Assembly: GCA_011321845.1 (NCBI GenBank)
Contig: DROQ01000211.1
Coordinates: 21,911 to 85,910, forward strand
DNA from: Planctomycetota bacterium
GTDB taxonomy: Bacteria; Planctomycetota; UBA1135; GCA-002748355
Length of the DNA: 64,000 bases
Reading direction: 5' to 3'
Below the pieces are notes generated by a model. That model was given only the letters and a program-made list of their open reading frames with translations, was not told where the DNA came from and searched no databases. Positions 3,598-64,000 of the stretch are shown here, one piece after another. Numbering within the stretch: the stretch's first letter is position 1; the number at the start of each line of letters is the position of its first letter. The position numbers were made by a program, and so were the translations under genes.

Positions 3598-3863
3598 GGA
3601 AACGCCGGGAGGGGTTTTCTACCGGGGTTTTTTACGTGAAACGCCTGGAGGGGTTTTCTACCGGGGTTTTCTACGCAAAACGCCTGGAGGCGTTTCCTAC
3701 GTGAAACCCCTGGAGGGGTTTCCTACGCAAAACCCCTGGAGGGGTTTTCTACGTGAAACGCCTGGAGGCGTTCCCTACCGGCGTTCCCTACCGGCGTTCC
3801 CTACTGACGTTTCCTGCTGGCGTTCCCTACTGGGGTTCCTTATTGGGTTTTCTGGTGGGTTCC
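3598..3863. repeat. Tandem palindromic hairpin array, locus 1 (about 6 x 26-nt units plus about 7 x 13-nt half units)
   Basis: Units GAAAC[G/C]CC-TGGA-GG[C/G]GTTTC-CTACGY read directly; followed by tandem GGCGTTCCCTACC half units that decay into the 3' end of the 3827-5581 CDS. Confidence 0.95.
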
Positions 3864-5581: not shown

Positions 5582-5677
5582 TTTCTTTCCTTTGATCGAA
5601 GGGGAGGCCTTCCTACGCTGGCGACCCAGAGAATGTGAGCGAAGAAAGGGCTTTGGGGCCGGGGCGGATCTTGATCC

Positions 5678-6142
5678 ATGGCGAGAAAACAGAAAGAAAA
5701 GGGTTGCGTCGAGATCTGGACGGACGGGGCCTGCAAGGGAAACCCCGGTCCGGGAGGCTGGGGCGCTTTGCTTTGCTGGAAGGGCAAGGAAAAGGAACTC
5801 TGCGGGGGGGAGAGCTTGACCACCAACAACCGTATGGAGCTGATGGCGGCCATCCGGGCCCTGGAAGCCCTCAAACGGCCGTGTCGGGTGATTCTCCATA
5901 CAGACTCTCAATATCTTCGGGGCGGGATCACCCAGTGGATTCACGGATGGAAGGCCCGGGGATGGAAGACTGCGGGAAAGAAGCCGGTGAAGAACCAGGA
6001 CCTCTGGGAGCGGCTGGACGCCCTGATCCAAAAGCACGAGATCGAGTGGCGCTGGGTCAAGGGCCACGCAGGGGACGAGGGGAACGAGCGAGCCGATGCC
6101 CTCGCGAACAAGGGTGTCCCCGATGGGCGGGAGGGGAGCTGA
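5678..6142 (+). CDS. rnhA: Ribonuclease HI
   Basis: [42 protein letters not shown]: full RNase H catalytic DEDD context. Confidence 0.95.
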
Positions 6143-6143
6143 G

Positions 6144-6896
6144 GTGGCGGTCCTCGTAATGATCCCGACGCTGCGGGAGGCGGAAGCCCTGCTGGGGCCC
6201 GTTGCCGCGCGCCAGGCCCTCGAGGGGCGGGGGACCATTGGGGGACAGCCATGCTCCTTGGTGGGGATGGGGCCGATCGAGGCGGCGGTGGGGGCGGGGC
6301 GGGCCTTCGCGCGGCATCCCGAGGTGCAGGCTGGACTGCTGCTGGGGCTGGGGGGGAGCTACGACCTGAAAAGGGCGCCGCGGGGGGCGCTCGTGCGGGC
6401 GGAGTGGTTCGGGCTGGATCCGGCGCCCCTGGCTTTTTTGGAGAAGGGGGCCAGGCTGGGCCTGGAGGGGGAGCTGGAGGCGCGGCATCCCATGCCGGCC
6501 GAGGGGTTACCCGCTGCCCTCGGGAATTGGGAGGGCTCCGAAGAGATACTCTCCGGGGGTTTTGTGACGGTGGCGGCTCCCAGCGAGGAGCCCGGAGTTG
6601 GGAGGGAGCTTGGACCCGGGCTCGAGGGTGCAAAGCTTGGGCCCAGGCGCGGGGGGGCGAAGATGGGACCCGGACTGAAAGGGGCACAGCTTGGGCCGGG
6701 GCTCGAGGGGGCCCTGGTGGAGGAGATGGAGGGCTACGCCGTGGCGCGGGCGGGAATGGCCTTTGGCAAAGGGCTGGCATCCCTGCGGGCGATCTCGAAT
6801 GGGGTGGGGGAGCGGGACCTGGCCGTCTGGGACCTGGAGGGGGCTTTTCGGGCCCTTCGAAGAGTGGTGGAGGTCTTGCAGGGGGGGCTGGGATGA
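6144..6896 (+). CDS. mqnB: Futalosine hydrolase (nucleosidase family) with internal 9-aa x4 repeat insertion
   Basis: PNP_UDP-type motifs GMGPIEAAVGAG and EEMEGYAVA; adjacent and ATGA-coupled to mqnD. Start uncertain: GTG 6144 (GGAG RBS, just after rnhA stop) preferred; ATG 6096 or 6123 possible. Confidence 0.7.
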   Translation: MAVLVMIPTLREAEALLGPVAARQALEGRGTIGGQPCSLVGMGPIEAAVGAGRAFARHPEVQAGLLLGLGGSYDLKRAPRGALVRAEWFGLDPAPLAFLEKGARLGLEGELEARHPMPAEGLPAALGNWEGSEEILSGGFVTVAAPSEEPGVGRELGPGLEGAKLGPRRGGAKMGPGLKGAQLGPGLEGALVEEMEGYAVARAGMAFGKGLASLRAISNGVGERDLAVWDLEGAFRALRRVVEVLQGGLG

Positions 6897-25270: not shown

Positions 25271-25374
25271 GGAAACGCCTGGAGGCGTTTCCTGCCGGCG
25301 TTTTCTGCTTGAAACGCCTGGAGGCGTTTCCCACCGGCGTTTTCTACCGGCGTTCCCTGCCGGCGTTTTCTACG
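25271..25374. repeat. Tandem palindromic hairpin array, locus 2
   Basis: Two perfect GGAAACGCCTGGAGGCGTTTCC hairpins interleaved with 13-nt half units GGCGTTTTCTRCY; starts 9 nt after stop at 25262. Confidence 0.95.
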
Positions 25375-29647: not shown

Positions 29648-30298
29648 ATGGAACAACAGTTATTCCCGAAGTGGACGAATAAGATTCGGAATGTTCTTGG
29701 AGCGGGGGCGGGGGCCTTGGGCGTGTATGCGCTCATCTTCTTCGGCTACGCCGCCTCTCCTAAGACGATCAACGTCGGTTATCAACCCGAGCAGCCGGTT
29801 CCCTTCAGCCATGCGCTCCACGCGGGAGAGCTGGGAATGGACTGTCGGTATTGCCATAACACCGTTGAGACCGCGGCTTTGGCTGCAGTCCCCCCTACGG
29901 AGACCTGCATGAACTGCCATGCCCGAATCCGGACCAAGAGCCCCAAGCTGGCCCTGGTCCGAGAGAGTTACAGGACCGGAAAGGGGATTCCCTGGGTCAA
30001 GGTTCATGATCTTCCCGATTACGTCAAGTTCAACCACAGCGCACATGTCACCCGAGGGGTGAGTTGCGTCTCCTGCCATGGACGGGTGGATCGGATGGAA
30101 CAAGTTCGACAGGTCGAGCCTCTCAGCATGGGGTGGTGCCTCAACTGCCACCGAAACCCGGAGGCGGTCCTGAGACCCAAAGACAAGGTGACGGACCTCG
30201 CTTGGAAGCCCAAGGAATCCCAGGAGACCCTGGGGGCCAGGCTCAGGAAGGAATACAAGATCAACCCCCCGACCAACTGCTCGACTTGTCACCAGTGA
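29648..30298 (+). CDS. actA: Alternative complex III subunit ActA (pentahaem cytochrome c)
   Basis: Five CxxCH motifs: CRYCH, CMNCH, CVSCH, CLNCH, CSTCH; N-terminal TM; first gene of act cluster. Confidence 0.9.
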
Positions 30299-30389
30299 GG
30301 CCCTGTTGAACCCCCTTACGAATCCATCTCAGATGACATCCTCGAACAACCATTCGAAGCCACCTTCGGCGCTCTCTTCGGAGTCGCAT

Positions 30390-33368
30390 ATGACCGCGAA
30401 AAAGACCTATTGGCGCAGCCTGGACGAGCTGGCCGATTCTCCCGATTTCCGGCGCTTCTTGGAGCGGGAGTTCCAGGATCCGGAGAACATCCCTCCTGTG
30501 ACGCGCCGCCGATTCCTCCAGTTGATGGGGGCTTCGATCGCCCTCGCCTCGGCCGCGGGTTGTCGCTGGGAGGAGGACCACCTGGTCCCCCTGAGTTCCC
30601 GGCCCGAAGGCTTTGCGCCGGGAGTTCCCAGGCATTTCTCGACGACTTGGGATTTTATGGGGGTGGGCCAACCTCTGGTGATCACGAGCTATGACGGTCG
30701 ACCCATCAAGGTGGAGGGCAATCCCGACCATCCGATGAGTCTTGGAGCGACCAACACCTTTGCTCAAGCCATGATCCTGGAACTCTACGATCCCGAGCGG
30801 AGCCGTCTGGTCCTCTCCAAGGGAGAAGAGAAGACCTGGACCGATTTCTTCCGTCTCTGGCAGGGCCTGGCCAAGACCTTCAAGGGGAACGGGGGCGAGG
30901 GGCTTGCCTTCCTGGGCCTGGAAAGTTCTTCCCAGATCGCCGCGGAACTCGAGGGACGCCTGAAAAAGACCTTCCCCAAGGCTCGCTTCGTGAGTTACGA
31001 GGCGGCCGGACGGGACAATGTTCGGGAGGGGGCCAGGCTGGCTTTTGGGACCGAATTGGAGCCTGTCTACGAACTGGAAAGAGCGGACATCATTGCCAGC
31101 TTCGACTGTGACTTGCTCCACGGGGAGCCCGCTTCGGTTTCCTACCAGCGGGGTTTCGCCCGGCGTCGCTCACCCGAGGGGGCCGAGATGAATCGCCTCT
31201 ACGCGGTGGAGAGCAGCTATACACCCACGGGTGCCATGGCCGACCATCGTCTCCCACTGCGTTCGGAGCAGGTTGGAGTCATGATCGCGGCCCTCGAGGC
31301 CAAATTGATGGGCGAAGCGCTCCCCAAGGCCGAGTTCCTCGCGGACGGGAAGATCAAACAGTTCCTGGATGTCCTTGCGGAGGATCTCCTGGCTCACAAG
31401 GGGAAGGCCGTGGTCGCTGCTGGACCCCAACAGCCGGCCTGGGTCCACGCCAAGGTTTTCAACATCAACGCCAAGCTCGGAGGCTGGGGCTCGACCGTGA
31501 GGTTCCGGTCGGTCCCCGCCGGGGACAAGGGGATCAAGGCTCTGGCCTCTCTCGCTTCCGAGATGAAGGCAGGCAAGATCCAGACGCTCTTCGTCCTCGA
31601 AGGGAACCCTGTATACGATGCCCCCAAGGACCTGGACTTCGAGGCCTCTTTCGCCAAAGTCCCGACCACGGTCCACCTCGGAACGCGGGTGGATGAAACG
31701 GGCAAGCTCGCCACTTGGCATCTCCCCCTAAGCCACCCCTTTGAAAGCTGGGGCGAAGCCGTGGGGGCGGATGGTTCCCTCTGCCTTTCTCAACCCCTGA
31801 TCGAGCCGCTCTATGGGAGCGCCTCTCGGATCGAACTCCTCGCCTTTCTGGAGAAGGGGAGCTGGACCAAGGGCAAGGATCTGGTCCGGGAATGGTTCAA
31901 GGGCCGAAAGGGGAGCAAGGATGAGGATTGGAAGAAGGCATTGATCCGCGGATTCCTCCCCGGAGAAGGGTTCGCCAGCGTGGGGGCTCCCAAGAGGGTT
32001 CCCCTCCCCAAGCTTGGGGCCTCGGCGACCGCAAGCCGCCTCCCGGCGGGGCAGGTCGAGCTGGTCTTTGGTGCGGATCGTTCCACATACGATGGGCGCT
32101 TCGCCAACAATGGTTGGCTCCAGGAGCTGCCCGATTTCATCACCAAGTTGACATGGGATAACGCGGCTTTCATCGGGTTCCAGACTGCCAAGGACCTTGG
32201 TTTGAAAAATGGGGACATGATCCGCCTGAGCCATGGGGGTCGTAGCCTGGAACTCCCCGCCTATCTCCTCCCCGGGCAGGCAGAAGGTTCGGTTTTCCTG
32301 CCTCTCGGCTATGGGAGGCGTGAGGCCGGAACGGTCGGAGGGTCCAAGGAAAAGGGGGTGGAGCCGGTCGGTTTCGACACCAATCTCCTGAGGTCTTCCC
32401 AGGCCGCTTGGATCGCCACCGGGGCCAAGGTGGAGCCCACGGGGGCCCACTTCACCCTGGCCATGACCCAGGATCATTTCGCGATCGACGCGATTGGAAT
32501 GAAGGGACGTCGGGAGAAGGCGGAGAGCTTGATCCTCGAGGCCGATTTGGAGGAATTCCGCAAGGATCCCGAGATCGTAGATGAGGAGTCCAAAACCTTT
32601 TTGGAAGCACCTTCCCTCTTTACCGAGATCGAATACAAGGGGGAACAAAAGTGGGGGATGTCCATCGATTTGGCCAAGTGCACGGGATGCAACGCCTGTG
32701 TGGTGGCTTGCCAGTCCGAAAACAATATCCCCGTCGTAGGCAAAGAGCAGGTTCTCCATGGAAGGGAGATGCATTGGATCCGCATTGACCGCTACTTCTC
32801 TGGAGAGCCCGAGGATCCGCAGATCGTCCAGCAGCCGATGCCTTGCTTGCAGTGCGAGCTGGCACCCTGTGAGCAGGTTTGCCCTGTAGCAGCCACCACG
32901 CACAGCGAAGAGGGCCTGAACGACATGGCCTACAACCGCTGCATCGGGACTCGATACTGTGCGAACAACTGCCCGGTCAAGGTCCGGAGGTTCAACTACT
33001 TCAACTACTTCAAGAAGGAAGATTATGACGAATCCTTCGAGGTGAAGAAGCTGATCTTCAACCCTGAGGTCACCATCCGACATCGGGGTGTCATGGAGAA
33101 GTGCACCTACTGCGTGCAGCGCATCAAGGCTGTCAAGATCCCAGCCAAAAACGAGGGACGCACCTTGAAGGACGGCGAAATCAAGACGGCCTGCGAGCAG
33201 GTCTGTCCCGCCGAAGCCATCCGCTTCGGCGATTTGAAGGATGAAGGGAGTCGTGTCTCCAAGGACCACTCCAATCCTCGAGTTTATGAGCTGCTGCCCG
33301 AGCTGAAGCTGAAGGCGCGCACGAAATATCTGGCCCGCATTCGAAACCCTAACAAGAAACTGGGGTGA
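30390..33368 (+). CDS. actB: Alternative complex III subunit ActB (molybdopterin-oxidoreductase-like plus 4Fe-4S domain)
   Basis: [14 protein letters not shown], Tat motif [20 protein letters not shown], Fe-S clusters [37 protein letters not shown]; ATG 30390 with GGAG RBS (TTG 30306 / ATG 30333 alternatives). Confidence 0.9.
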
Positions 33369-33374
33369 TCCTGG

Positions 33375-34820
33375 ATGTCCAACGAGCTGAGTAGTGTCGA
33401 TTTTCTAGCGGATGACCCCACGCAGAGGGCTCCGCTGGTTTCTCCAGACCTTGAATTCAAGGATGTCACGGAGACTGTCTGTGGAGTTGCCGAGAAACCC
33501 AGGCCTCCCAAAGCTTGGTATGTAGCCTTTGGGATCTCCCTGGCTCTCACGGGGATGTTGTTCTCCATGATCGCCTACCTGGTCATCACCGGTGTAGGGG
33601 TCTGGGGAAACAACTCTCCTGCCTTTTGGGGCTTCCCCATCGTCAACTTCGTGTTCTGGGTAGGAATTGGCCACGCAGGGACCTTGATCTCCGCGATCCT
33701 CTTTCTCTTCCGGCAGAAGTGGAGAACCAGCATCAACCGCTTCGCGGAGGCGATGACGATCTTCGCTGTCGTTTGCGCGGGCTTGTTCCCCGGGATTCAC
33801 GTCGGCCGTATCTGGTTCGCGTACTGGCTCTTTCCCATCCCCAACCAGATGGAAATGTGGCCCAACTTCCGCTCACCCCTCCTTTGGGACGTTTTCGCGG
33901 TGGGGACCTATGCGACCGTCTCTCTCCTGTTCTGGTATTTCGGGATGATCCCCGATCTCGCCAGCCTCAGAGACAGGGCCAAAGGCAAGATCGCCAAGCT
34001 TCTCTACGGGATCTTTTCACTGGGATGGTCAGGCTCGGCTCGGCATTGGCATCGTTACGAACGCGCCTATTTGATTCTGGCTGCCCTGGCAACACCGCTG
34101 GTCCTCTCCGTCCACTCGGTCGTTTCCTTCGACTTTGCCGTCGCTCAGCTCCCGGGCTGGCACTCGACCATCCTCCCTCCCTACTTCGTCGCAGGCGCCA
34201 TCTTCAGTGGATTCGCGATGGTGGTGACCCTGATGTTGCCCGCCCGCTTGCTCTTCGGTTTGGAAAAGATCGTGACCATGCGGCACATCGAAAACATGAA
34301 CAAGGTCATCCTCGCGACGGGAATGATGGTGGGTTACGCCTATGCGATGGAGTTTTTCATTGCTTGGTATAGCGGGTCCCCTTCGGAACGCTTCGTCTTC
34401 ATCAACCGGGCCTTCGGTAACTATGCCTGGGCCTATTGGATCATGGTGAGTTGCAACGTGTTCATTCCGCAGCTCTTCTGGTTCAAGAAACTCCGTCGGA
34501 ACCCCTGGGTGATCATGTTCGTTGTCCTGTTTGTCAACGTGGGCATGTGGTTCGAACGTTTCGTGATCGCGGTTACATCCCTTACCCGGGATTTTACTCC
34601 CGCGAGCTGGGGTTATTTCTCACCGACTTGGATTGATATTGGAATGCTGGTCGGGAGCTTTGGACTCTTCTTCACCTTGTTCCTCCTCTTCCTGCGCTTC
34701 TTGCCGATTGTCGCGATCTCCGAAGTGAAAGGAGTGATGCCACAAGCGCATGGGCATCAGGACGGAGGCCATGGTGAGGTCAAGGAAGCAGCTGAGGCTG
34801 GCGCAAGCACCAACTCCTAG
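33375..34820 (+). CDS. actC: Alternative complex III subunit ActC (NrfD/PsrC-like quinol-interacting membrane subunit)
   Basis: ~10 TM helices, position after actB, size 481 aa. Confidence 0.85.
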
Positions 34821-34875
34821 ACCATTCTTGAGACCCTCCCTTGAAAGAAACACAAACAAAACTCGGTTTTGAAAA

Positions 34876-36114
34876 ATGACGGATAAGAGCATGCAAGCAT
34901 CCGCAAATGCAGACCCCAAAGGGGAATCTGCCCCAGTCGCAGGGATCCTGGCTGAGTTCGATGGGCCAGGGGCTCTGAAAAAGGCTGCGGTCCAAATCAG
35001 AGACGCGGGGTTTACCCGTTGGGACTGCTATTCCCCTTTCCCCGTCCATGGGATTGATCCAGCTATGGGGGTTCGCCCAACCATCCTCCCCTGGATCATC
35101 CTGGGGATGGGGCTCACTGGTCTCACGATCGCGACGGCTCTCCAGTGGTGGACCAATGGAGTGGACTATCCTTTCTTGATCTCAGGCAAGCCCCTCTTTG
35201 GATTGCCGGCGAACATCCCGATCATGTTCGAGCTGACCATTCTCCTCAGCGCCTTCGGTGCCTTCTTCGGCGCCCTGATTCTCAATGACCTCCCCAAATT
35301 CTACCGGCCGATCTTCTCTTCCAAGCGTTTCAAGAAGGTGACCGACAACGGATTCTTTATTGGGATCGAGGCCAGTGACCCTCATTACGACTCGAAAAAG
35401 ATCCAGAGCCTTTTCCGCCAGATGGGTCCTCTTTCGGTGGAGGAGTTCCATGATACGGATCCTCAGGGCGCTCTCCCAAAGGCGTTCTTTCGCGTGGGAA
35501 TCATCCTCTTCCTCTTGGGACTCATCCCTCTTGCTTTGGCCTTGAAGTCCAGACACTCCACCTCAAGCAGTCCTCGTTGGCATTTCTGGAGGGATATGGA
35601 TTTTCAACCTGTGGCCAAAGCCCAGAGAGCCAGTGCTTTCTTCCCCGATGGCAGGGTGATCCGTCCCCAGGTGGAGGGAACCTTCGCCCGGGAGCAGGCT
35701 GATGACAATCCCCATCTCAACCAGGGGCGCGTGAACGGCAAGTTCGCCACGACCTTTCCCATGAAACTCTCCATGGAGATGCTGGAGAGGGGGAAGGATC
35801 GCTTTGATACCTACTGTGCTCCCTGTCATGGCAAGGACGGGAGAGGGCAGGGTCTTGTTGCGAAACGTGCATCTACCCTTGGCGAAGGGACCTGGGTGCC
35901 GCCAAGCAATCTGGTCGATCCCCGCATTGAAAAGATGCCGGTGGGCGAGATCTATCAGGCCATTCGATATGGCGTTCGAAACATGCCCAAGTATGGGCCA
36001 CAAATCAAAGTCGAGGACCGCTGGGCGATCGTTGCTTACATTCGGGCACTCCAAAGGAGTCAGAATGGAACGATCAAAGATGTCCCGGAAGCCGACCGTG
36101 GGAAACTGAAGTAG
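34876..36114 (+). CDS. ActD-ActE fusion (DUF3341 membrane domain plus monohaem cytochrome c)
   Basis: N-terminal ILAEFDGPGALKKAAVQIRDAGFTRWDCYSPFPVHG (ActD/DUF3341), C-terminal CAPCHGKDGRG and PKYG..AIVAYIRAL cytochrome c. Confidence 0.85.
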   Translation: MTDKSMQASANADPKGESAPVAGILAEFDGPGALKKAAVQIRDAGFTRWDCYSPFPVHGIDPAMGVRPTILPWIILGMGLTGLTIATALQWWTNGVDYPFLISGKPLFGLPANIPIMFELTILLSAFGAFFGALILNDLPKFYRPIFSSKRFKKVTDNGFFIGIEASDPHYDSKKIQSLFRQMGPLSVEEFHDTDPQGALPKAFFRVGIILFLLGLIPLALALKSRHSTSSSPRWHFWRDMDFQPVAKAQRASAFFPDGRVIRPQVEGTFAREQADDNPHLNQGRVNGKFATTFPMKLSMEMLERGKDRFDTYCAPCHGKDGRGQGLVAKRASTLGEGTWVPPSNLVDPRIEKMPVGEIYQAIRYGVRNMPKYGPQIKVEDRWAIVAYIRALQRSQNGTIKDVPEADRGKLK

Positions 36115-36127
36115 GGAGCCGAAAGAG

Positions 36128-37375
36128 ATGAATCACCCCAGCCCGGAAGTGGTCCTGAATGATGACCGCCACCTTGGTCCCCTGGGTCCGAAGATCCTTC
36201 GGATCGCGGGAGGACTTGGGATCGTCCTGTTGATCCTTGGGCTCGTCCTTGGGATTACGGGAAGCGGAGGCGGCATGAGTCGTTTCCTTTTCGCCTATAC
36301 CGCAGGGTTTGCCTTCATCCTGAGTATCGCTCTGGGGGCGATGTTCTTTGTGTTGGTCAACCATCTGACTCGGGCGGGTTGGTGTGCCACAACCAGGCGC
36401 ATCGCTGAGATCACGATGGGGACCATGCCGTTTTTGGCCATTTTGTTTCTTCCGATCTTGATCAGCGTTTTGATGGGCTACGGAGGATTGTTCTCCTGGG
36501 CCGACCATGAGATCGCCTCCAAGGACCATTTGATCCACCTCAAGGCCGGCTATCTCAACCCGGTATTCTTCACGATCCGTTGGGTGATCTACTTTGCGGT
36601 CTGGATGCAGATCTCAAGGTATTATTTGGGAGGGTCCGTGCGCCAGGATGATTCGGGTGATCCCGAGATTACCTCCAGGATGCAGAAATGGAGCGCTGCC
36701 TCCATCCTACTTTTCGCCCTTACGCTGACCTTCGCCTCCTTTGACCTCCTGATGTCCCTGGCGCCGCACTGGTTCAGCTCGATCTTCGGTGTCTACTTTT
36801 TCGCTGGATCGGTGATTGCCTTCCAGGCCTTTGGGATCCTGGTCCTAGTTCTCCTCCAACGGAAAGGGAAACTAAAGAAATCGGTGAGCATCGAACACTT
36901 TCATGACTGGGGAAAGCTTCTTTTCGCCTTCGTGTTTTTCTGGGCCTATATCGCCTATTCCCAGTTCATGTTGATCTGGTACGGGAATATCCCCGAGGAA
37001 ACGGGTTGGTTCCACACTCGGATTACGGGTTCCTGGGGTGGGGTCGCCTTGATCCTGGTCTTTGCCCATTTCGTGATTCCTTTTGCGGGTTTGATGTCCC
37101 GCCATGCGAAACGGAACCTGGCTTCCCTCTCCTTCTGGGCGATGTGGATGCTCATCATGCATTGCATCGACATCTATTGGATTGTGATGCCCAACCAGGG
37201 CGGTCACGGACACGGGGAGGCCCCGGGAGTTCATTTCCAGGCATTGGATATTCTCGCGATTGTGGGACTCTTCAGCCTTTTCGTAGCGGGAGCCGCTTAT
37301 ATCGGACGCCACTGTTCCCTCGTGGCGGTCAAGGAGCCGAGATTGGCCGAATCCCTCGCTTTTGAAAACGCTTAG
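36128..37375 (+). CDS. actF: Alternative complex III subunit ActF (second NrfD-like membrane subunit)
   Basis: Polytopic membrane protein, 415 aa, in canonical position after actD/E. Confidence 0.75.
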   Translation: MNHPSPEVVLNDDRHLGPLGPKILRIAGGLGIVLLILGLVLGITGSGGGMSRFLFAYTAGFAFILSIALGAMFFVLVNHLTRAGWCATTRRIAEITMGTMPFLAILFLPILISVLMGYGGLFSWADHEIASKDHLIHLKAGYLNPVFFTIRWVIYFAVWMQISRYYLGGSVRQDDSGDPEITSRMQKWSAASILLFALTLTFASFDLLMSLAPHWFSSIFGVYFFAGSVIAFQAFGILVLVLLQRKGKLKKSVSIEHFHDWGKLLFAFVFFWAYIAYSQFMLIWYGNIPEETGWFHTRITGSWGGVALILVFAHFVIPFAGLMSRHAKRNLASLSFWAMWMLIMHCIDIYWIVMPNQGGHGHGEAPGVHFQALDILAIVGLFSLFVAGAAYIGRHCSLVAVKEPRLAESLAFENA

Positions 37376-37410
37376 ATTTGAACTGGTGTGATGAGAAACG
37401 CAGTAATTCT

Positions 37411-37554
37411 AAACCTGTCAAAACCTGTCAAAACCTGTCAAAACCTGAATGATTTCTGAACCTGAAAGACTTCCGAAACTGAAGGCTTTCCGAGACTGAA
37501 AGATTCCAAAACGGACTGAAAGATTCCAAGACGGACTGAAAGATTCCAAAACGG
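37411..37554. repeat. Two sets of short direct repeats in the actF-cox gap
   Basis: AAACCTGTCA x3 (37411-37440, 4th partial) then five units of ACTGAAAGATTCCAARACGG (last three 20-nt copies 37495-37554 nearly identical). Confidence 0.95.
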
Positions 37555-37570
37555 AAGGGGCCTAAAAGCC

Positions 37571-37864
37571 ATGGCGTTATTACATTTCGAACAGGACCGC
37601 CCGAATGTTGGGGCCATCGTTTCCATCACGCTGATCGGAACGCTGGTCCTATATCTCTTCATCCTCGTTGCGGATGTCCTCTACCATGTGACCTCCAGCC
37701 AAAGGGCGGAGACGATGGGGGGAGGAATGCTGGAAAGGGCGCAAAGCTTCTATGCAAAGCAAGAGGAGGCTTTCAGCGACTACCGGTACATCGATAAGGA
37801 GAAAGGCAAGGTTGCGCTTCCGATTCGACGGGCCATGCAGCTCGTTTTGGAGGAGGAGAAATGA
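37571..37864 (+). CDS. Small single-TM protein of unknown function inside ACIII-cox cluster
   Basis: ATG 37571 after GGAAGGGG; TM IVSITLIGTLVLYLFILVADVLY; stop overlaps SCO1 start (ATGA). Confidence 0.6.
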   Translation: MALLHFEQDRPNVGAIVSITLIGTLVLYLFILVADVLYHVTSSQRAETMGGGMLERAQSFYAKQEEAFSDYRYIDKEKGKVALPIRRAMQLVLEEEK

Positions 37865-38736
37865 AAGAGATGTCAAGGACACCGCTCCTCCATCTCTGGT
37901 CCATCGGGCTCTCTCTCCTTCTTTTGGGAGGACGGGGCCATAGCCAAAAAAACGTGCTCCCCAAGGAATTGGAGGGGATTGGGGTGGATCAGAAACTCGG
38001 TGTTCAGATTCCAACCCAGCTTATGTTCCGGGACTCTTCCGGAAGAAAGGTCTCTTTAAAGGCTTTCTTCGACGGAAAACGACCGGTCTTTTTGACCTTC
38101 AACTACACGGATTGTCCCCAGCTCTGCAGCTTGCAGCTCAATTCCTTGAACGAGGCTTTGAAGAGCTTGGATTGGACTCCTGGCAAGGAGTTCAGGATCC
38201 TAACTGTGAGCATGGATCCCACGGAAACCCCGGAAAAGGCGGCGGGAACCAAGGCGCTCTATCTTCATGCCCTCGCCGAGAAGAAGGGTGGTGAAAAGGA
38301 CCTTCGGAATGGATGGGAATTCCTTACAGGTGAGGACAAGAATATTCGCGCCCTCGCCGATGCGGTTGGGTTTCATTATCGATTTCTCCCCGATCGCAAA
38401 GAGTACGCGCACAAAGCCGCGCTGATCACCCTCTCACCGGAGGGAAAAGTGCTGCGTTATCTTTCCAACATCAACTACAGCCCGAGAGATTTGAAATTCG
38501 CCTTGCTTGAAGCAGGGGAGGGGAAGGTTGGGTCGGCCGTCGACAATTTCTTTCTTTCCTGCTTCGACTATGACCCCAGGCGGGGAGGGTACGTCCTCGC
38601 CGCGGTCCGGATCATGAAGGTCGGTGGAGTCTTGACGCTGCTCCTCCTCGGATTGTTCTGGTTCTCAATGGCCCGAATGAAAAAGAAAAAAGCTCTGTTA
38701 CTCGAAGGCCAAGGCCACGAGGAAGGGGATCTCTGA
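37861..38736 (+). CDS. SCO1/SenC copper chaperone for oxidase assembly
   Basis: Thioredoxin-fold motif FNYTDCPQLCS and downstream conserved H (YAHKAALITLSPEG). Confidence 0.88.
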   Translation: MKEMSRTPLLHLWSIGLSLLLLGGRGHSQKNVLPKELEGIGVDQKLGVQIPTQLMFRDSSGRKVSLKAFFDGKRPVFLTFNYTDCPQLCSLQLNSLNEALKSLDWTPGKEFRILTVSMDPTETPEKAAGTKALYLHALAEKKGGEKDLRNGWEFLTGEDKNIRALADAVGFHYRFLPDRKEYAHKAALITLSPEGKVLRYLSNINYSPRDLKFALLEAGEGKVGSAVDNFFLSCFDYDPRRGGYVLAAVRIMKVGGVLTLLLLGLFWFSMARMKKKKALLLEGQGHEEGDL

Positions 38737-38743
38737 AACGAAC

Positions 38744-39721
38744 ATGTTGCACGCACTAACTTCGATCTTCGCCCAGCAGGGCTCCGGAGGCTACAAGTGG
38801 ATGCCTGAGAGGGCTTCTTCCTATGCTTCCGAGGTGGACTGGGCTTTCAACTTTGTCTATTGGCTGTCAGTCTTCTTCTTCGCGCTGATCGTCATCCTGA
38901 CCGTGGTCTTCGCCATCAAATATCGGAGGCGGCCCGGGGTGGAGCCGGACAACAGTATTACCCACAACACGAAACTAGAGGTCTTCTGGTCGGTTGTTCC
39001 TCTAGGCCTCGTGGTGGTCATCTTCTGGATCGGCTTCTCGGGGTTTGTCGATATGCGGACCTTTCCCAAGGATGCCATGGTGGTGAAGGTGCACGCCAAG
39101 ATGTGGAGTTGGACCTTTGAATATCCCAATGGGGTCGAATCCACCGTTCTCCATGTGCCTTTGGGTAAGAAGGTGAAGTTGCGGATGGATTCCGAAGACG
39201 TCCTCCACAGTTTTTGGGTCCCCGCCTTCCGGGTGAAACAAGACGTGGTTCCCGGACGTTATACCTATCTATGGTTTGAAGCGATCAAGACCGGGACTTT
39301 CCCCGTCCTGTGCACCGAATACTGCGGCGCAGGTCACTCCAACATGCTCACCACCGTAGAGGTCCAGGAGCCTGCTGCCTTCGAGGCCTGGCTCGAGGAA
39401 GAAGGAAGCGGAAAAAACCTTTCTCCTGTCGAGCGGGGGAAGAAGGTGTTCAATCTCAAGGGCTGCGCAGGTTGCCATACAACCTCCAAGGACAAGAAGA
39501 AGCTGGTGGGGCCACCTCTTTACGGGGTCTTTGGGCATGATGTTCCCCTGCTCAATGGAAAGAAGGTCCTGGCTGACGAGAATTATCTGCGGGAATCCAT
39601 CCTGGATCCCAACGCCAAGATCGTGAAGGGCTTCACCTCTCCTTCCCTGATGTCGGTGATTCCATTGAAAGACAAAGAACTCGATGCCTTGATTGAGTAC
39701 TTAAAGAGCCTCAAGGATTGA
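38744..39721 (+). CDS. coxB: Cytochrome c oxidase subunit II with fused cytochrome c (caa3-type)
   Basis: CuA site CTEYCGAGHSNM; C-terminal haem c motif CAGCHT. Confidence 0.93.
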   Translation: MLHALTSIFAQQGSGGYKWMPERASSYASEVDWAFNFVYWLSVFFFALIVILTVVFAIKYRRRPGVEPDNSITHNTKLEVFWSVVPLGLVVVIFWIGFSGFVDMRTFPKDAMVVKVHAKMWSWTFEYPNGVESTVLHVPLGKKVKLRMDSEDVLHSFWVPAFRVKQDVVPGRYTYLWFEAIKTGTFPVLCTEYCGAGHSNMLTTVEVQEPAAFEAWLEEEGSGKNLSPVERGKKVFNLKGCAGCHTTSKDKKKLVGPPLYGVFGHDVPLLNGKKVLADENYLRESILDPNAKIVKGFTSPSLMSVIPLKDKELDALIEYLKSLKD

Positions 39722-39733
39722 GGGAGAAATAGA

Positions 39734-41457
<1,724 letters not shown>

Positions 41458-41461
<4 letters not shown>

Positions 41462-42177
41462 GTCAAGCGATCGATACCATTCATGGGGCTGTGGATCACC
41501 ATCCCCATGACTCCCAGGTTGCCCATCATTTTGAGAACGCCGAACAGCAGTTTGAATCGGCGAAATTGGGGATGTGGGTTTTTCTCGTTACCGAGATCCT
41601 CTTCTTCAGTGGTCTTTTCTGTGTCTATGCGGTCTATCGTTCGCTTCATCCCGAGGTGTTCCTTTACGCGCATCAATGGCTTGATAAGGGGCTGGGGGCG
41701 ATCAACACCATCGTGTTGATCGTGAGCTCCTTTACGATGGCCTGGGCCGTCCGGAATGCTCAGCTGGGCCAGAAAAAAGCCTTGATGATCAACTTGACTT
41801 TGACTCTCCTTTGTGCGGCAACCTTTATGGGGATCAAAGCCGAGGAGTACTCCCAAAAATACGAGCATGGAACAACCTGGGGAGCCTCCTTTCAGCCCCA
41901 TCCCGATGCCTTTGGGGAGGTTCATGGAGGAGAGATCAAAAAGGAGGATATGCCGAGGAATACGCAAATCTTCTTCAGCATCTACTTTGCTCTGACCGGC
42001 CTTCACGGATTCCACGTTTTAGTCGGGATGGGTTTGATTCTTTGGCTATTGATTCGGGCCGCGAAGGGCCAATTCGGTCCCCAGTATTTCACACCGGTGG
42101 ATATTGTGGGACTCTATTGGCACCTGGTGGATTTGATATGGATCTTTCTTTTCCCCTTGCTCTATCTCATCCATTGA
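41458..42177 (+). CDS. coxC: Cytochrome c oxidase subunit III
   Basis: ATGA-coupled to coxA; [32 protein letters not shown] and [17 protein letters not shown]. Confidence 0.92.
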
Positions 42178-57144: not shown

Positions 57145-57168
57145 TTGCGGCCAAGGGAGAACTCCGAA

Positions 57169-59424
57169 ATGACCCAACTCGTTCCAAAGCCACCGTCGAG
57201 CACAGAGCCCCGAGAGGGTGGGGCCAGGGTTTCGTCCCCGCCCTCTCCCCGAGCGTTTCGGTTCAAGATCACGGGGATGACCTGCGCGACCTGCGCCGGG
57301 CGGATCGAAAAGGTTCTGCGGCGCCTGGACTCAGTCCTCTCGGCTCAGGTCAACTTGGCAACCGAGGTGGCGACGGTAGCCATCGGGCCCGGTCCTGGCG
57401 AGGAGGGAGCCGATGCCCTGATCGCCGCCATCGAGAGGGCGGGCTTCGGGGCACGGCTCGCGGACTCCGAAGACAAGGTCGCCGAGGAGCGCGAACAGCG
57501 GCAGCGGCGGCGGGAAAGCTGGATTCTTCTGGTTTCCGTTCTGCTGACTCTCCCCCTCGTCGCCCCCATGCTCCTCCATCCCTTTGGGCTTGTCTGGGCG
57601 CTCCCCCCCTGGCTGCAACTCGCCCTGGCGACACCGGTCCAATTCCTGGTGGGTTGGCGCTATTACCAAGGCGGCTGGGCGGCCCTTCGGGCGCGCACGG
57701 GCAACATGGATCTTCTTGTGGCCCTCGGCACCAGCGCTGCCTATGGGCTGAGCGTCTGGAACCTCGCCCAGGGGAAGCCTCACCTCTACTTCGAGGCTTC
57801 GGCGGCGGTCATCACCCTGGTCCTCTTCGGCAAACACATGGAGGCCCGAGCCAAGCGAAGCGCGACGGCTGCCATCCGGGCTCTCATGGCCCTGCGGCCC
57901 GATACGGCCAGGGTTCTCCGCGAGGGGGAGGCGATCGAGATCCCTGCCGAAGCCGTGGGCAAGGGCGAGGTCGTGCTCGTCAAACCCGGGGAGCGCATCC
58001 CCATGGACGGGGTGATCCTGCGCGGGGGTAGCCAGGTCGACAACTCCATGCTCACCGGGGAGAGCATGCCCGTTCGAGTGGAGGTGGGGGACGAGGTCAC
58101 GGGGGGGGCGATCAATGGGGAGGGGCTCCTCGAGGTCCGGGTCACCAGGGTGGGAGAAGAATCGACCCTGGCCCAGATCGTTCGGATGGTCGAGGGAGCC
58201 CAAGCCAAAAAAGCGCCCATCCAGCGGGTCGTGGACCGGGTCGCGGCGGTCTTCGTGCCGGCTGTCATTCTGGTTGCGCTTGGGACCCTGGTCGCTTGGA
58301 TGATGGCCGGAGTGGGGACCGAGGTGGCCATCGTCAACGCGGTCGCCGTGCTCGTGATCGCCTGTCCCTGCGCCCTTGGTCTTGCGACCCCGACGGCCTT
58401 GATGGTGGGGACCAGCGCGGCGGCGCGGGCGGGCATCTTGATCAAGGACGCCGAAGCCCTGGAGCAGTCCCACAGGGTGCAGACCGTGGTCTTCGACAAG
58501 ACCGGGACACTGACCCAGGGCCGGCCCATGGTGCAGGGCATGGTGGCGCTTCAGGGGACGGAGAGGGAGTTGCTCTACTGGGGGGCTTCGGCGCAGCAGG
58601 GGAGCGAGCATCCCCTGGCCAGGGCCCTCCTCAAGGAAGCGGAGAGGCTCGAGATCCCGCTGGGCCCGCTCACCTCCTTCAAGGCCCTGATGGGCAAGGG
58701 GCTCGAGGCCGTTGTGGGCGAGCGCCCCATTCTGGTCGGCAGCCAAAAGCTGATGGAGGAGAGGGGCATCTCCCTGGAGGATCTGCCTCCCGAGTTGGAG
58801 GCCTGGGAGGCCCGGGGGATGACCCTGGTGTTCGTGGCCCAGGGGGGCGAAGAGAGGCGGTTGCTCGGCGTTTTCGGGCTTGCCGATGCCTTGCGTCCTT
58901 CCTCGGCGCAGGCGGTCGCTTTTCTCCAGAGCCAGGGGATCGAAGTCGTGATGCTGAGTGGAGACCACCGTGCGGCCGCCGAGTTGGTGGGAAAGCGGCT
59001 TGGGGTGGATCGCACGATCGCCGAGGTGCTCCCAGGGGAAAAAGCCGATGTGGTCAGGGAACTGTCCCAGTCCGGTCGCGTGGTCGCCATGGTGGGGGAC
59101 GGCGTCAATGACGCGCCCGCGCTGGCGGCAGCCCAGGTGGGGCTTGCCGTTTCGAGCGGGACGGACGTGGCCATGGCCACAGCCTCGGTGACCCTGATGC
59201 GGCCCGATCCGCTGCTGGTGGGGGACTGTCTCTCGGTCTCCAAAGCCACCACGCGCAAGATCCACCAGAACCTGTTCTGGGCCTTTGTCTACAACATTGT
59301 CGCCATCCCCTTCGCGGCCATGGGCTACCTCAACCCCGTGATCGCGGGCGCCGCCATGGCCATGTCGAGCGTGAGCGTTGTGAGCAATTCGCTGCTCCTG
59401 CGCCGCTGGAGGCCGAGTCGATGA
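57169..59424 (+). CDS. copA: Copper-translocating P1B-type ATPase
   Basis: [18 protein letters not shown] in [27 protein letters not shown]; ATG 57169 after GGGAGA. Confidence 0.95.
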
Positions 59425-59843
59425 AGACCCAGGACAAAGGCCGCCGTTTGACGATCGGGCGCCTCGCCGAGGAGAGCGGGGTCCCGACCAAGACGATTCG
59501 TTATTACGAGGAAGTGGGGCTGCTTCCCCAGCCCGTCCGTGGAAGCAATGGCTACCGTCGCTACGAGGAGAGTGCCGTTCACATGCTGCGCTTCGTGAGC
59601 CGGGCGCGGGAGATGGGCTTTTCGATGGAGGAGACCCGGGAGCTGCTTGCCCTTTGGCTGGACAAGGGGCGTAAGAGCGCCGATGTGCGGGCGATCGCCT
59701 TGCGTCACCTTGCGACCATTACTCATAAGATTTCCAAGTTGCAGGGGCTTCAGGCCACTCTGCAGCACCTCGTGCGCTGCTGCCACGGGGACGACCGGCC
59801 TGATTGTCCGATTTTGGAGGCTCTAGCGGAGGAGGAGAGATGA
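59421..59843 (+). CDS. cueR: MerR-family Cu(I)-responsive regulator
   Basis: [27 protein letters not shown]; metal loop [14 protein letters not shown] matches E. coli CueR C..GDD..DCPI(I/L)E. Confidence 0.88.
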
Positions 59844-60097
59844 AGACTTATGGAATCAAGGGAATGACTTGTGAGGGTTGCGTTGGGGCGGTGACGAAGG
59901 CGCTTCAGGCGGTTTTGGGGGATGTGGAGTTTGAGGTTTCTTTGGCGGAGAACTGTGTGAAGGTGAAGGGGGAGCATGATCCGGAGAGGGTGAGGGAGGC
60001 GGTTGAGGGGGCGGGGTTTGAATTTGGGGGGGAGGGGGGGCTGGAAACACCTGGAGGTGTTTCCTACGGAAAACGCCTGGAGACGTTTTCTACTTAA
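59840..60097 (+). CDS. copZ: CopZ-like heavy-metal-associated chaperone with repeat-encoded C-terminal tail
   Basis: ATGA-coupled to cueR; [18 protein letters not shown]; last ~18 codons ([18 protein letters not shown]) lie inside hairpin array 3. Confidence 0.8.
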   Translation: MKTYGIKGMTCEGCVGAVTKALQAVLGDVEFEVSLAENCVKVKGEHDPERVREAVEGAGFEFGGEGGLETPGGVSYGKRLETFST

Positions 60098-60198
60098 AAC
60101 GTCTGGAGACGTTTTCTACATGAAACGTCTGGAGACGTTTCCTACTTGAAACGCCTGGAGGCGTTCCCTACCGGCGTTTCCTACCGGCGTTTCCTGCG
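60043..60198. repeat. Tandem palindromic hairpin array, locus 3 (5 full units plus 2 half units)
   Basis: GGAAACACCTGGAGGTGTTTCC, AAAACGTCTGGAGACGTTTT, GAAACGTCTGGAGACGTTTC, GAAACGCCTGGAGGCGTTCC etc.; between convergent copZ and 60206-62428. Confidence 0.95.
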
Positions 60199-60205
60199 GG
60201 GGGGG

Positions 60206-62428
60206 CTATTTGGGGGTGTGGGGGACGGTTTGGAAGAGGAGGACGAGGGCGCGTTGGAGGACGCGGCGGTCCTTGTCATCGATGCTGCCCTTTTGGACGA
60301 TCTTGTCGACTTGGGAGAGGAGGGCGGCGAAGGAGGGGTTGGCGCGGGCGAAGTTGGGGTATTCGCGGTGTTGGAGGCATTCCTTCAGGATCTTGCGCAT
60401 TTGGAGGGCGTCGCTGAGGCGGGCGCTGGGTTTGGCGAGGAAGGGGAGGGGGGCGCGGCGCTCGAGGAGGCCTTGGAGAAGGAGTCGGGAGAGGCGCAGG
60501 ACGCGGGCCATCTTGGCGTAATCGAGGTTGCGGGGCTGGTCGCTCGGGCGGTGGTAATACCAGGGGGTCGCTGAGCTGACGAAGAGGTAGGGGACCTTTT
60601 TGGCCCGAAAGGACATGTAGTCGCTGCGGGCGAGGGACGGGCCGAAGGGCTCCAGGATGTAGTTGCCGAGAGGAAGGATCTGGAAGGGTTCGCCCTTGAA
60701 CTTGGGTTGGATCTTTTGGATCAGGGTCTCCAGGGCGGGGCTGTGTTCACTGCCCATCAGGTAGATGTCGCCTTTGCGCCAGGGGAGGAAGTTTCCGCCG
60801 ACCAGGTCGTAGATCAGGGCGAAGCGGATGCGCGCGCAGGGGATCACCTCGTGGGAGACGAAGCGACGGGAGCCGACGAGTCCCTTTTCCTCTGCGTCGA
60901 AGAAGACGAAGGCGAGGTGGTAGGGGAGCTTGTGCTTTTGCGGGGCGAAGGCGGCGGCCAGGGCGAGGGTGACAGCGACTCCGGAGGCGTTGTCGTCCGC
61001 GCCGGGGTAGTAAGTCCTGGCGCGCTTGCCGAGGTGGTCGTAGTGGGCACCGATCAGGAGGTAGTCCTTGGCGTCTTTGTTCCCCGGGAGGATGCCCACG
61101 AGGTTGCGGCAGCGGGCGCGTCCATAGCGGAATTCATGGACATAGCCGGCTCCTTCCTTTCCGCGAACACCAGGTTCGAGGCCGAGGGCCTCGATGCGCT
61201 GGAGGAGCCAGTCGCCGGCCTTGCGCCCCCCGGGGGTGCCGGCGCCGCGGCCTTGGAATTCGGGAGAGGCCAGCTTGGAGACATCCGCTCGGAGCGCGGC
61301 CTCGAGTTTGGTGGGAGACTTCTGTTGAGGAGGGACGAGGAGGGCGAGCAGGCGGCGGCTCAGGGGTTTGAGCCTGGCGTACTCGCAATTGCTCATGAGG
61401 GCGACGCCGCTGTGGAGTTCGGGAAGGGCGAGAAGCCAGGTCCGGGTCTTTTCCTGAGCGCCTGCGTGCTCCACCAGCCGTTTGCCGGCGTAGCGACCGA
61501 GGGCGAAGCCCAACCCGTAACGCGTCCGCTTGCCATTCTTCAACGCGGGGCTGGTCCAGAGGGTCTCCCAACTCTTCTTTTTGAGCAAGGATGGGCTTCC
61601 CCAGGCTGCGCCGAAGCGCGCGAGGTCCACGACATGGGACAGGAACCCGCCCCCCGGCAGCTTCCAGCTCACGTCCGTGTTGCTGGAGGGGAAGGGCTCT
61701 CCCTTTTTTCCGAGCCGCTGGTAGCCGACCGCCCGCCCGGGGATGTCCTTCCACTGGTAATCGGGCTCCAGGCTGGAGAGGCCGAGGGGGAGCTTGATCC
61801 TCTTTCGCACCTGTTCCCAGTAGGGGACGCCTCCCGCCCGGCGGAGTACCGCGCCTGCCAGGATGAAGCCATGGGTGGAGTAGCTGTATTTGGTCCCGGG
61901 CTCGGCGATCAGCGGGGAGTCCTTGAAGGTGTCGAGGGCCAGGATGAGGTTGGCGAAGGGATGCTTCTCTTTGTAGCTGCGCTGGGTCCGGATGACCTTG
62001 CCGTTTCGGTAGTGCACGATCCCCGCCTGGTGGGCCAGGAGGCGCCGCATGGTGATGGGCCAAGGTTTCTTGGGAAACTCCGGGACATAGCTGCGGATGT
62101 CCTTGTCCAAATCCAGCTTGCCCTGCTCCACCAGCTGCATGGCAGCGATGGCGGTCAGAGGTTTTGAGATCGATGCCCAGCGATACTTGGTCTCCTTGCT
62201 GGCGGGGATCCTGGCCTCGCGGTCGGCGAAGCCATAGCCCTTGGCGTAAACGACCTTGCCTCCTCGAAACAAGGCGACCGAGAGTCCGACAAGGTTTTGC
62301 CGCCGCATACTCCGCTGCGCCAGCGCATCCACCTTTGCGGGGAGGGTTGGAGCTGCTTCTTGTGGAGGGGATCCCTGGGGAGCCAGGGCCATGAGAGGAA
62401 GGAGCGAGGAGAGGATGGTCGGCATCAT
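60206..62428 (-). CDS. Secreted fusion: serine hydrolase (class C beta-lactamase/PBP-like) plus M28 peptidase
   Basis: Internal ATG 62428 gives leader MMPTILSSLLPLMALAPQ; SxxK SISK in YRWASISKPLTA; C-terminal GAHYDHLG, GADDNASGVA, FFDAEEKGLVGS (M28). Confidence 0.8.
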   Translation of the reverse strand: MMPTILSSLLPLMALAPQGSPPQEAAPTLPAKVDALAQRSMRRQNLVGLSVALFRGGKVVYAKGYGFADREARIPASKETKYRWASISKPLTAIAAMQLVEQGKLDLDKDIRSYVPEFPKKPWPITMRRLLAHQAGIVHYRNGKVIRTQRSYKEKHPFANLILALDTFKDSPLIAEPGTKYSYSTHGFILAGAVLRRAGGVPYWEQVRKRIKLPLGLSSLEPDYQWKDIPGRAVGYQRLGKKGEPFPSSNTDVSWKLPGGGFLSHVVDLARFGAAWGSPSLLKKKSWETLWTSPALKNGKRTRYGLGFALGRYAGKRLVEHAGAQEKTRTWLLALPELHSGVALMSNCEYARLKPLSRRLLALLVPPQQKSPTKLEAALRADVSKLASPEFQGRGAGTPGGRKAGDWLLQRIEALGLEPGVRGKEGAGYVHEFRYGRARCRNLVGILPGNKDAKDYLLIGAHYDHLGKRARTYYPGADDNASGVAVTLALAAAFAPQKHKLPYHLAFVFFDAEEKGLVGSRRFVSHEVIPCARIRFALIYDLVGGNFLPWRKGDIYLMGSEHSPALETLIQKIQPKFKGEPFQILPLGNYILEPFGPSLARSDYMSFRAKKVPYLFVSSATPWYYHRPSDQPRNLDYAKMARVLRLSRLLLQGLLERRAPLPFLAKPSARLSDALQMRKILKECLQHREYPNFARANPSFAALLSQVDKIVQKGSIDDKDRRVLQRALVLLFQTVPHTPK

Positions 62429-62874
62429 TGGTCCTTGCGAAAGGGAGAGGGTCCAGGATCTTCGAGCCACTCCTCGAAGATTTTTTTCCAAGGCTCGGGG
62501 ATGGGCTGTTTGCTCATGTGCCGCATGTCCACCGAGACGGTGCGGATACGAGCGACGGCGAGGCGCTGTTTGCCTTGTTCGTCCTTGGACATCCAGAACT
62601 CGAAGTGCACCGAATGCTTGCCCAGTCCGATGATCCGGAGTCCGATCCAGGGCTCGTCCCCGTAGCGAATCTGTCCCAAAAAATCCGACTCGATGTGCAC
62701 GGCGGGCAGCCCGAAATGCTGCTTGTGCAAGACCTCCGCGTAGGGGATGCCCAGGGCGTCCTGCCACCAATCCTCGAAGACCTGGTGAAAATAATGAAAA
62801 AAACTCGGGTAATAGGCGATTCCCGCGTCATCGATGTCGCCGAACCGGTATCGGAATTGCTTCGCGAACTTCAT
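62425..62874 (-). CDS. Hotdog-fold acyl-CoA thioesterase (4HBT/YbgC-like)
   Basis: ATG 62874; YRFGDIDDAGIAYYPSFFHYF active-site-like N-terminus; ATGA-coupled to downstream hydrolase. Confidence 0.6.
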   Translation of the reverse strand: MKFAKQFRYRFGDIDDAGIAYYPSFFHYFHQVFEDWWQDALGIPYAEVLHKQHFGLPAVHIESDFLGQIRYGDEPWIGLRIIGLGKHSVHFEFWMSKDEQGKQRLAVARIRTVSVDMRHMSKQPIPEPWKKIFEEWLEDPGPSPFRKDQ

Positions 62875-62966: not shown

Positions 62967-64000
62967 ATGACTTTGGTATCCTTCTTGCTTCCCCTCGTCT
63001 TCCTTGTCCAGCAGAACAAGGGTTACCCATTCGAGGAACCCATCCTCCTCCGAAGCGGGGGAGAGATCATCGACGTGGAGATGGGACATGCCGCTCCGCT
63101 GCTGGTGGACCTGGATGGGGATGGAAAACGAGAGCTTCTTGTCGGCCAGTTTGGTGAAGGCAGGCTGCGGATCTACGAGCGGACCCGGGAGGCAAAGGCT
63201 TATGATTTTGGCCCCGTCCGTTACTTCGAAGTGGGGAAACATCTGGGGCGTGTCCCAACGGGTTGATGCGTGGGTTTCGGTCCGCAGTTCGCGGACCTCG
63301 ACGGCGATGGCAAGAAGGACCTCGTCTCGGGTTCCTGGCCGGGGGAGGTTTATTGTTTCAAGGGCCAAGGCGGGGGGACCTTTGCGGCCCCGATCAAGCT
63401 GGGATTCGAGGATGGAACCGAGCTGAACGTGGGCAAGGCCGCCTCCGTGGCCGTGGGGGATTGGGACGGTGATGGGGATCTGGACCTCCTCATCGGGGTG
63501 ATCTCCGGAGAGGTCTGGTTCGTTCCCCGGGTGGCGAAGGAATGGAACAAGGGTTTCGGACCCGGCCAGAAGATCCAGGTCGGCTCGAAAGATCTGCGGG
63601 TGCCGGGGGGAGACGCGGGGCCCGCGCTGGCGGATTTCGACCGGGACGGAATCACGGACCTCCTGGTGGGTGCGGGAAACGGGAGCGTGCTCCTCTATCG
63701 CCGCGTCCGTAAGGGGGACGCGCTGCTGTTGCAACCTCCCCAGATCTTGCTTCCCCGTGGGGATTCCCAGCCCAAGGATCCCAAGCGTCATGGGCAGCGC
63801 TCCAAGCTCCAGGTCCTCGACTGGAACGGGGATGGACGCATGGACCTGTTGGTGGGCGACTTTTCTACAGAGCCGGGCGCTGCCCCCAAGTTGAGCCAGG
63901 CCCAGCAGGAAAAGAAAAAGAGCCTCCTCGCCCGGCGCAGCCGGATCTCCGCGGGTCTGGGGGAGAGGATCCGCGCCCTGTCCAGAAAGGTTCGCAAGGC
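62967..64000 (+). CDS. Secreted FG-GAP/VCBS-repeat protein, partial at window end, interrupted by one in-frame TGA (63264-63266)
   Basis: Signal MTLVSFLLPLVFLVQQ; repeats VDLDGDGKRELLVG, FADLDGDGKKDLVSG, GDWDGDGDLDLLIG, ADFDRDGITDLLVG, LDWNGDGRMDLLVG all in one frame on both sides of the TGA. Confidence 0.75.

Follow-up and report, generated by a model that had tools for sequence, protein, structure and literature searches.

We identified, at the 3' end of a 64-kb stretch of planctomycete DNA (64,000 nucleotides, hereafter the window), a gene that very probably encodes a 410-residue secreted FG-GAP beta-propeller selenoprotein, in which the in-frame UGA at 63264-63266 specifies selenocysteine (Sec) and a hairpin just downstream serves as the SECIS element. 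Taken alone, the decoding of this UGA as Sec is almost certain from comparison of homologous sequences. The gene belongs to a large and widespread family of secreted beta-propeller proteins. The features of the gene, all on the forward (+) strand, are as follows:

62967..63263, +: N-terminal part, 99 codons, with a signal-peptide-like hydrophobic start and the first FG-GAP blade (GHAAP...DLDGDG); recognised from the translation and from homology to the N-terminal region of Cys-type proteins.
63264..63266, +: in-frame UGA, putative Sec codon; TGA at this column in 149 homologous genes, Cys in full-length homologues.
63267..63269, +: TGC, the Cys codon of the putative vicinal Sec-Cys (U-C) dyad; Cys in 149/149 sites, which were selected as TGA-TG[CT].
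63279..63297, +: bSECIS-like hairpin within the ORF, with a 7-bp stem (GGUCCGC/GCGGACC) and the loop AGUUC; -12.8 kcal/mol.
63267..64000, continuing past the window end, +: downstream coding part, with four further FG-GAP blades and then the beginning of a helical region.

The FG-GAP reading frame opens with the ATG at 62967, meets the TGA, and is then open through 64000. A preliminary description of this DNA had proposed a single TGA in an otherwise intact FG-GAP gene, with no frameshift and with a Cys codon directly after the TGA, and each of these coordinates agrees with our reading. Comparison with the sequence of locus L170 gives a full gene of 1,233 nt, or 410 residues. The further FG-GAP repeats claimed beyond the TGA are borne out by Pfam, which matches the read-through product of the window to FG-GAP_3 (PF13517; 94.5 bits, 6e-27) and FG-GAP (PF01839; 69.3 bits, 2e-19). 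The downstream part of the gene is 99% identical to a homologue (P0001), and in the L170/L171 annotation the N-terminal part is called as a separate gene of 99 aa.

A protein search returned 3,710 relatives falling into two length classes. Relatives of ~400 aa span the whole query and carry Cys-Cys exactly at the position of the TGA-Cys pair (..P-x-x-C-C-[VI]-G-F-x-P-Q..); those in the larger class, of ~300-340 aa, start just past the dyad position. In the DNA of two such 'short' genes, an upstream ORF of 101-102 codons ends in TGA at the same column and the frame continues. Our survey, which drew on 80 loci of species-representative genomes, a further 80 from metagenomes and the initial look-ups, contained 149 distinct homologous genes with TGA followed by TGC or TGT at this column and about 15 Cys-type sites. 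The UGA is thus conserved at a column that holds Cys in full-length forms, not an unconserved residue as the preliminary description had asked homologues to exclude, and these 149 TGA homologues, the Cys-Cys forms and the covarying hairpin described below support its proposal of a candidate selenoprotein. The codon after the TGA is TGC at 135 and TGT at 14 of the 149 sites, which were chosen as TGA-TG[CT]; the use of both codons indicates selection on the amino acid. Two further TGA sites, L038:9534 and L082:4883, have D or H in place of this Cys (U-D, U-H).

Carriers of the TGA that derive from genomes belong to the Planctomycetota (Pirellulales, Gemmataceae, Phycisphaerae and Sedimentisphaerales), Verrucomicrobiota and Armatimonadota, and the others are metagenomic. 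Individual genomes can hold many members: MAG_CPA_17 (JBBCJD01) has at least 17 distinct TGA sites (loci L060, L061, L067, L075, L050 and L056), partly in head-to-tail arrays of 4-5 genes, and CBDFNI01 has at least seven (loci L014, L022, L023, L034, L046 and L072). The records of NCBI, JGI and ENA alike show members as two genes. A library search with the 99-aa N-terminal fragment was dominated by giant multi-repeat FG-GAP proteins and gave no count of split genes. Sequence variants within the family include a W-U-C-T-S-S-T-P-Q subfamily (L145, L153, L154, L156 and L162) and Gly variants such as L151 (GGSVGF).

Gene neighbourhoods differ among the loci that we compared and, not being conserved, provide no operon clue to function. 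The Cys-type genes at L166 and L168 (P0005 and P0013) are flanked by very large Peptidase_M56-WD40 repeat genes whose products, upstream of the Cys-type genes, have 1,062 and 1,833 residues, a context not seen at Sec-type loci. Close upstream of the FG-GAP gene, the window has a Cu-type P-type ATPase gene (57145-59421) and, at 59804-60097, a small ORF of the CxxC heavy-metal-associated-like type. Just past the 3' end of the window, on the strand opposite to the FG-GAP gene (L170:3860-4279), is a gene whose 139-aa product has an RF-1 domain and is an ArfB-like peptidyl-tRNA hydrolase; that it lies beside a recoded UGA gene is probably coincidence. Elsewhere, a contiguous respiratory cluster (29648-42174) encodes multihaem cytochrome c, alternative complex III subunits (Fe-S/ActB-like, NrfD and ActD), SCO1 and cytochrome c oxidase subunits II, I and III. 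The window also has two large M28-type peptidase genes on the reverse strand, one at 3830-6238 (-) with Pfam Peptidase_M28 and PDZ domains, and one at 60206-62770 (-) in which an M28-like region was recognised by eye after a beta-lactamase-like N-terminal part. A palindromic unit, AAACGYCTGGAGRCGTTT, recurs in three intergenic tandem clusters, at 3600-3773, 25273-25329 and 60045-60166, with 6, 2 and 5 copies respectively, those of the last cluster recurring about every 26 nt; its 13 distinct sites compare with 0 expected from shuffles, and it resembles the REP-like or terminator-like repeats of gene ends.

The hairpin consists of the 5' arm GGTCCGC (63279-85), the loop AGTTC (63286-90) and the 3' arm GCGGACC (63291-97), and the TGA is separated by 12 nt from the stem and by about 19-20 nt from the loop. 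These coordinates agree with the perfect 7-bp stem 12 nt past the TGA and the GU-containing 5-nt loop AGUUC reported earlier, and they confirm a loop spacing, given there as 20 nt, within the 16-37 nt bSECIS range. The consensus bSECIS model (Zhang and Gladyshev, as summarised in PMC13188914) calls for a loop of 3-9 nt with a G in its first two positions, a stem of 4-16 bp, 16-37 nt from UGA to loop and a minimum free energy of -7.5 kcal/mol or lower. On all four counts the window hairpin conforms, with a 5-nt loop beginning A-G-U, a 7-bp stem, a spacing of about 19 nt and, for the isolated 19-nt hairpin, -12.8 kcal/mol. By a strict contiguous-stem test, 72 of the 149 family sites conform on all four; the remaining sites miss the -7.5 kcal/mol threshold because they have just a 5-bp core. 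A G within the first two loop positions is found at about 90% of family sites, with a spacing of 19 nt. The folding energy of the local 66-nt region is unremarkable relative to shuffles (z = -0.19, in 61%-GC sequence), and an Rfam scan of the window, hairpin included, gave no match. A local z-score is uninformative in GC-rich coding sequence. The significance of the hairpin comes from comparative data and not from thermodynamics.

The family-wide core of the hairpin is the inner 5 bp, which pairs 63281-85 with 63291-95 (offsets 17-21 with 27-31, where the T of the TGA is 0). All five core pairs are present at 120 of 149 Sec-type sites versus none of 15 Cys-type sites. The paired share of cells in 70 diverse sequences is 85.5%; sliding the 3' arm by 1-3 nt lowers it to 26-44%, and the covariation score was reached by none of 500 shuffles. 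The informative pair, 21-29 (AU 43, GC 16, GU 5, CG 2), has on one side a synonymous site (Pro CCA/CCG) and on the other a site that changes the amino acid (Val GUG / Ala GCG). Codon choice within the stem is also strongly constrained when set against the same genes' own codon usage: Val is GTG in 122/122 cases (own-gene background 0.38), Gly is GGT in 76/77 (0.11), Thr is ACT in 41/49 (0.08) and Ala is GCG in 22/22 (0.35). At a Gly outside the stem, two codons upstream, all four codons are in use, and Cys-type genes encoding the identical peptide PQ[LV]VDLDGDG have GTC for Val and no stem. In the PMLGD subfamily (L033, L040, L051 and L095) the hairpin is kept with a shift of 1 nt (CUCCC/GGGAG). 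Part of the stem complementarity is due to protein conservation, because the stem overlaps conserved codons (G-P...D-L). Orthologues with the TGA, which the preliminary description had proposed to examine for the hairpin, thus keep it with compensatory changes, and Cys-type genes have lost it; these patterns support the interpretation that it behaves as a SECIS element.

A Pfam scan of about 40 genes in the 64-kb window found no selA, selB or selD, and the window contains no tRNA-Sec and no tRNA of any kind. Among 82 related loci scanned for tRNAs, there was a single tRNA-Sec, at L050:2544-2636; a family member lies 3 kb away, and the genome is the one that carries at least 17 paralogues. This tRNA was recognised by ARAGORN, with the anticodon TCA, and by Rfam (RF01852; 70.8 bits against a threshold of 47); the genes flanking it are not sel genes. 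Complete selA/B/D sets have been reported for some Planctomycetes (PMC4807772), and this and the L050 tRNA-Sec speak indirectly for Sec machinery. By its ribosomal protein L3, the organism falls within an uncultured lineage of Planctomycetota, and MAG GCA_027003555.1 has an L3 identical to it.

A lone internal stop in an intact ORF resembles a fresh nonsense mutation, and the preliminary description had listed a recent nonsense mutation or a sequencing error as its alternatives; that Sec machinery is not seen in the 64-kb window would fit as well. We nevertheless rejected a pseudogene or an unreal TGA arising from sequencing or assembly error as highly improbable. A near-identical strain (99.7% to the window) retains TGA-TGC and the identical hairpin in two independent assemblies, both of which read TGA and not TGC or TGG at this site and yield the complete 410-residue product, the TGA occupies the same column in 149 diverged genes, and dN/dS is 0.15 both upstream and downstream of the TGA (21 independent pairs of related Sec-type genes). 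Reassignment of TGA to a sense codon throughout the genome (code 4 or 25), for which nothing speaks besides the in-frame TGA, is less probable still and was also rejected: TGA is an ordinary stop in the window, where it terminates 22 of 49 putative genes, and no further credible internal TGA turned up when this 61%-GC sequence was scanned, the remaining matches being adjacent genes in the same frame.

The annotation of two genes by gene callers could instead reflect a genuinely split gene, in which a 99-residue product ends at the TGA, a C-terminal protein restarts at the conserved GTG 27 nt downstream (present at offset 27 in 122 of 149 sites) and the two pieces assemble. The invariant GTG would then be a start codon and not an element of the stem, and we consider both the restart and this reading of the GTG very unlikely. 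From the TGA to the GTG, 8 codons are conserved in amino acid yet vary synonymously (Cys TGC/TGT in 149/149, Gly in 140/149 with four codons, Phe TTC/TTT), and they are therefore translated; translation runs across the UGA. Moreover, a start codon is missing at offset 27 in 25 sites, 9 of which have none in the next 90 nt either, and 21 of the 25 still form all five stem pairs. A start codon leaves unexplained both the third-position T of codon 5 and the CCA/CCG-GUG/GCG covariation, and the Cys-type homologues are single polypeptides. On the strength of the conserved intervening codons and of stems kept where the start codon is missing, the GTG restart was rejected. A programmed read-through that inserts a near-cognate Trp, Cys, Gly or Arg under the influence of the hairpin would account for translation across the UGA, given that downstream structures can stimulate read-through and that no Sec machinery was found in the 64-kb window. 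We regard this as improbable, though less so than the other alternatives: the existence of Cys-type homologues and the agreement with the bSECIS model point to Sec specifically, a tRNA-Sec is present in the genome with at least 17 members, and Sec forms are far commoner than Cys forms, an imbalance that a product simply containing Cys would hardly account for.

If the UGA is decoded as Sec, ribosomes would pause at 63264-66 and the hairpin 12 nt downstream would recruit SelB-GTP-Sec-tRNA(Sec) to the paused ribosome. Sec would then be inserted at the UGA, as we infer for this organism. The product would carry a vicinal Sec-Cys dyad (..VPxG-U-C-[IV]-G-F-x-P-Q..) in a loop leading into the first strand of blade 2, where the dyad may form a redox-active selenenylsulfide or a soft-metal/metalloid-binding centre on the propeller.

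The AlphaFold model of a full-length Cys-type homologue, P0006 (pLDDT 90.7, pTM 0.88), predicts a beta-propeller of five DxDxDG-bearing FG-GAP repeats, followed at the C-terminus by a long helical hairpin (residues 334-388) and a terminal strand, HGxVWLFLRK. The dyad of this homologue (C100-C101) is placed by the model in the loop before the first strand of blade 2, directly upstream of the 'G-F-x-P' FG-GAP signature. A Foldseek search of the PDB with this model retrieved generic FG-GAP propellers only, at a TM of about 0.35, the best matches being the TcB toxin propeller, PVL lectin, CRTAC1, ITFG2 and integrin alphaV; none of the PDB matches offers a catalytic precedent. Conserved residues include the His of GHAAP, the His of HGxVW and the Arg of GxRxK. 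Pfam detects no UnbV_ASPIC domain in the 344 residues encoded in the window, and the full-length C-terminus is a helical hairpin plus one strand, not UnbV_ASPIC. Family N-termini, read directly from the sequences, resemble signal peptides, and the proteins are apparently secreted.

Bacterial selenoproteins known so far are mostly thioredoxin-fold or metal-cofactor redox enzymes. The family would differ from these in its fold, in being apparently secreted and in its vicinal U-C centre, and would add a predominance of Sec over Cys forms and multi-copy expansions inside single genomes. The constrained hairpin provides a natural mutational series (CCA/GUG, CCG/GCG and the shifted CUCCC/GGGAG) for SECIS rules outside the Proteobacteria. 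Because annotation systematically splits these genes, selenium use in soil and water Planctomycetota, Verrucomicrobiota and Armatimonadota has probably been under-counted, and, if our interpretation is right, the 7 to 17 or more paralogues of some genomes would mean that Planctomycetota and their neighbours hold much larger selenoproteomes than surveyed. We propose, tentatively and with rather less confidence than for Sec decoding itself, that this is a large, Sec-dominant, secreted family of non-thioredoxin fold whose propeller Sec-Cys dyad could be a new kind of extracytoplasmic selenium centre, acting as a catalytic selenenylsulfide or in soft-metal/metalloid capture.

The preliminary description had called the selenoprotein novel, a claim that holds with respect to current catalogues and has to be qualified by one earlier report. 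A May 2026 inventory lists 119 prokaryotic selenoprotein families, and FG-GAP, VCBS and propeller entries are absent from its Table 1, as is the motif G-U-C-[IV]-G (PMC13188914). NCBIfam release 20 gave no match above cut-off, and the family is mentioned neither in the deep-Sep paper and its supplements nor in the main text of BSepDB. The sole precedent found is Table S9 of Kim et al. 2016 (PMC4807772), which lists four planctomycete 'FG-Gap repeat' candidates, each made up of two adjacent annotated genes split by an in-frame UGA, with bSECISearch positive for 3/4; the gene pairs of that study include IMG 2643315136/7, 2643315207/8 and 2643291570/1. They differ from the genes described here in that the aligned residue is Gly and not Cys and an ASPIC/UnbV domain is named, where Pfam finds none in our gene; they appear in that supplementary table only, without family analysis (PMC4807772). 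Since Gly variants occur in the family, these candidates, compared here by description, may be members.

The closest genetic parallel is with selenoprotein genes that carry the SECIS within the ORF, for which E. coli fdhF is the prototype. The window gene shares with them an in-frame UGA and a stem-loop downstream within the coding sequence, and the 12 nt that separate its stem from the UGA come near the 11 nt reported for the fdhF minimal SECIS. With bacterial bSECIS genes generally it shares a small loop with G then U first, a spacing of 16-37 nt and the existence of Cys homologues. In contrast to these systems, the perfect 7-bp stem shows no evident bulged U and matches no Rfam model, and the protein families of fdhF-type genes are unrelated to the FG-GAP propeller.

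As for the dyad, mammalian thioredoxin reductase carries the motif GCUG, and the preliminary description had compared G-U-C-x-G to its reverse; the adjacency of Sec and Cys stands, and the likeness is one of resemblance only. Adjacent Sec and Cys also occur in CopZ-family (2Fe-2S)-binding protein form 1 (GxUC) and in the CU-motif proteins SaoL, HgcA, MbdU and SaoC (Table 1 of PMC13188914). In CopZ form 1, the CU-motif proteins and thioredoxin reductase, the dyad serves metal or organometal binding or as a selenenylsulfide redox centre. Those proteins have other folds and mostly the C-U order, whereas here the order is U-C and the dyad would be internal, in a propeller loop of an apparently secreted protein. 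Nor does the protein have a Trx-like fold with UxxC or CxxU; its motif is vicinal U-C and its predicted fold a beta-propeller. Known FG-GAP/VCBS propellers (integrin alpha, CRTAC1/ASPIC, Psathyrella PVL lectin, TcB and ITFG2) share the Pfam FG-GAP match and a calcium-loop-like DxDxDG in each blade. Unlike the present family, which combines five FG-GAP repeats with a long helical hairpin and a terminal strand, they are not known to contain Sec or a conserved Cys-Cys at this position. Together, these comparisons support a new selenoprotein family that uses the ordinary bacterial mechanism of Sec insertion and is unusual in its fold, its location, its U-C dyad, the dominance of its Sec form and its paralogue expansions.
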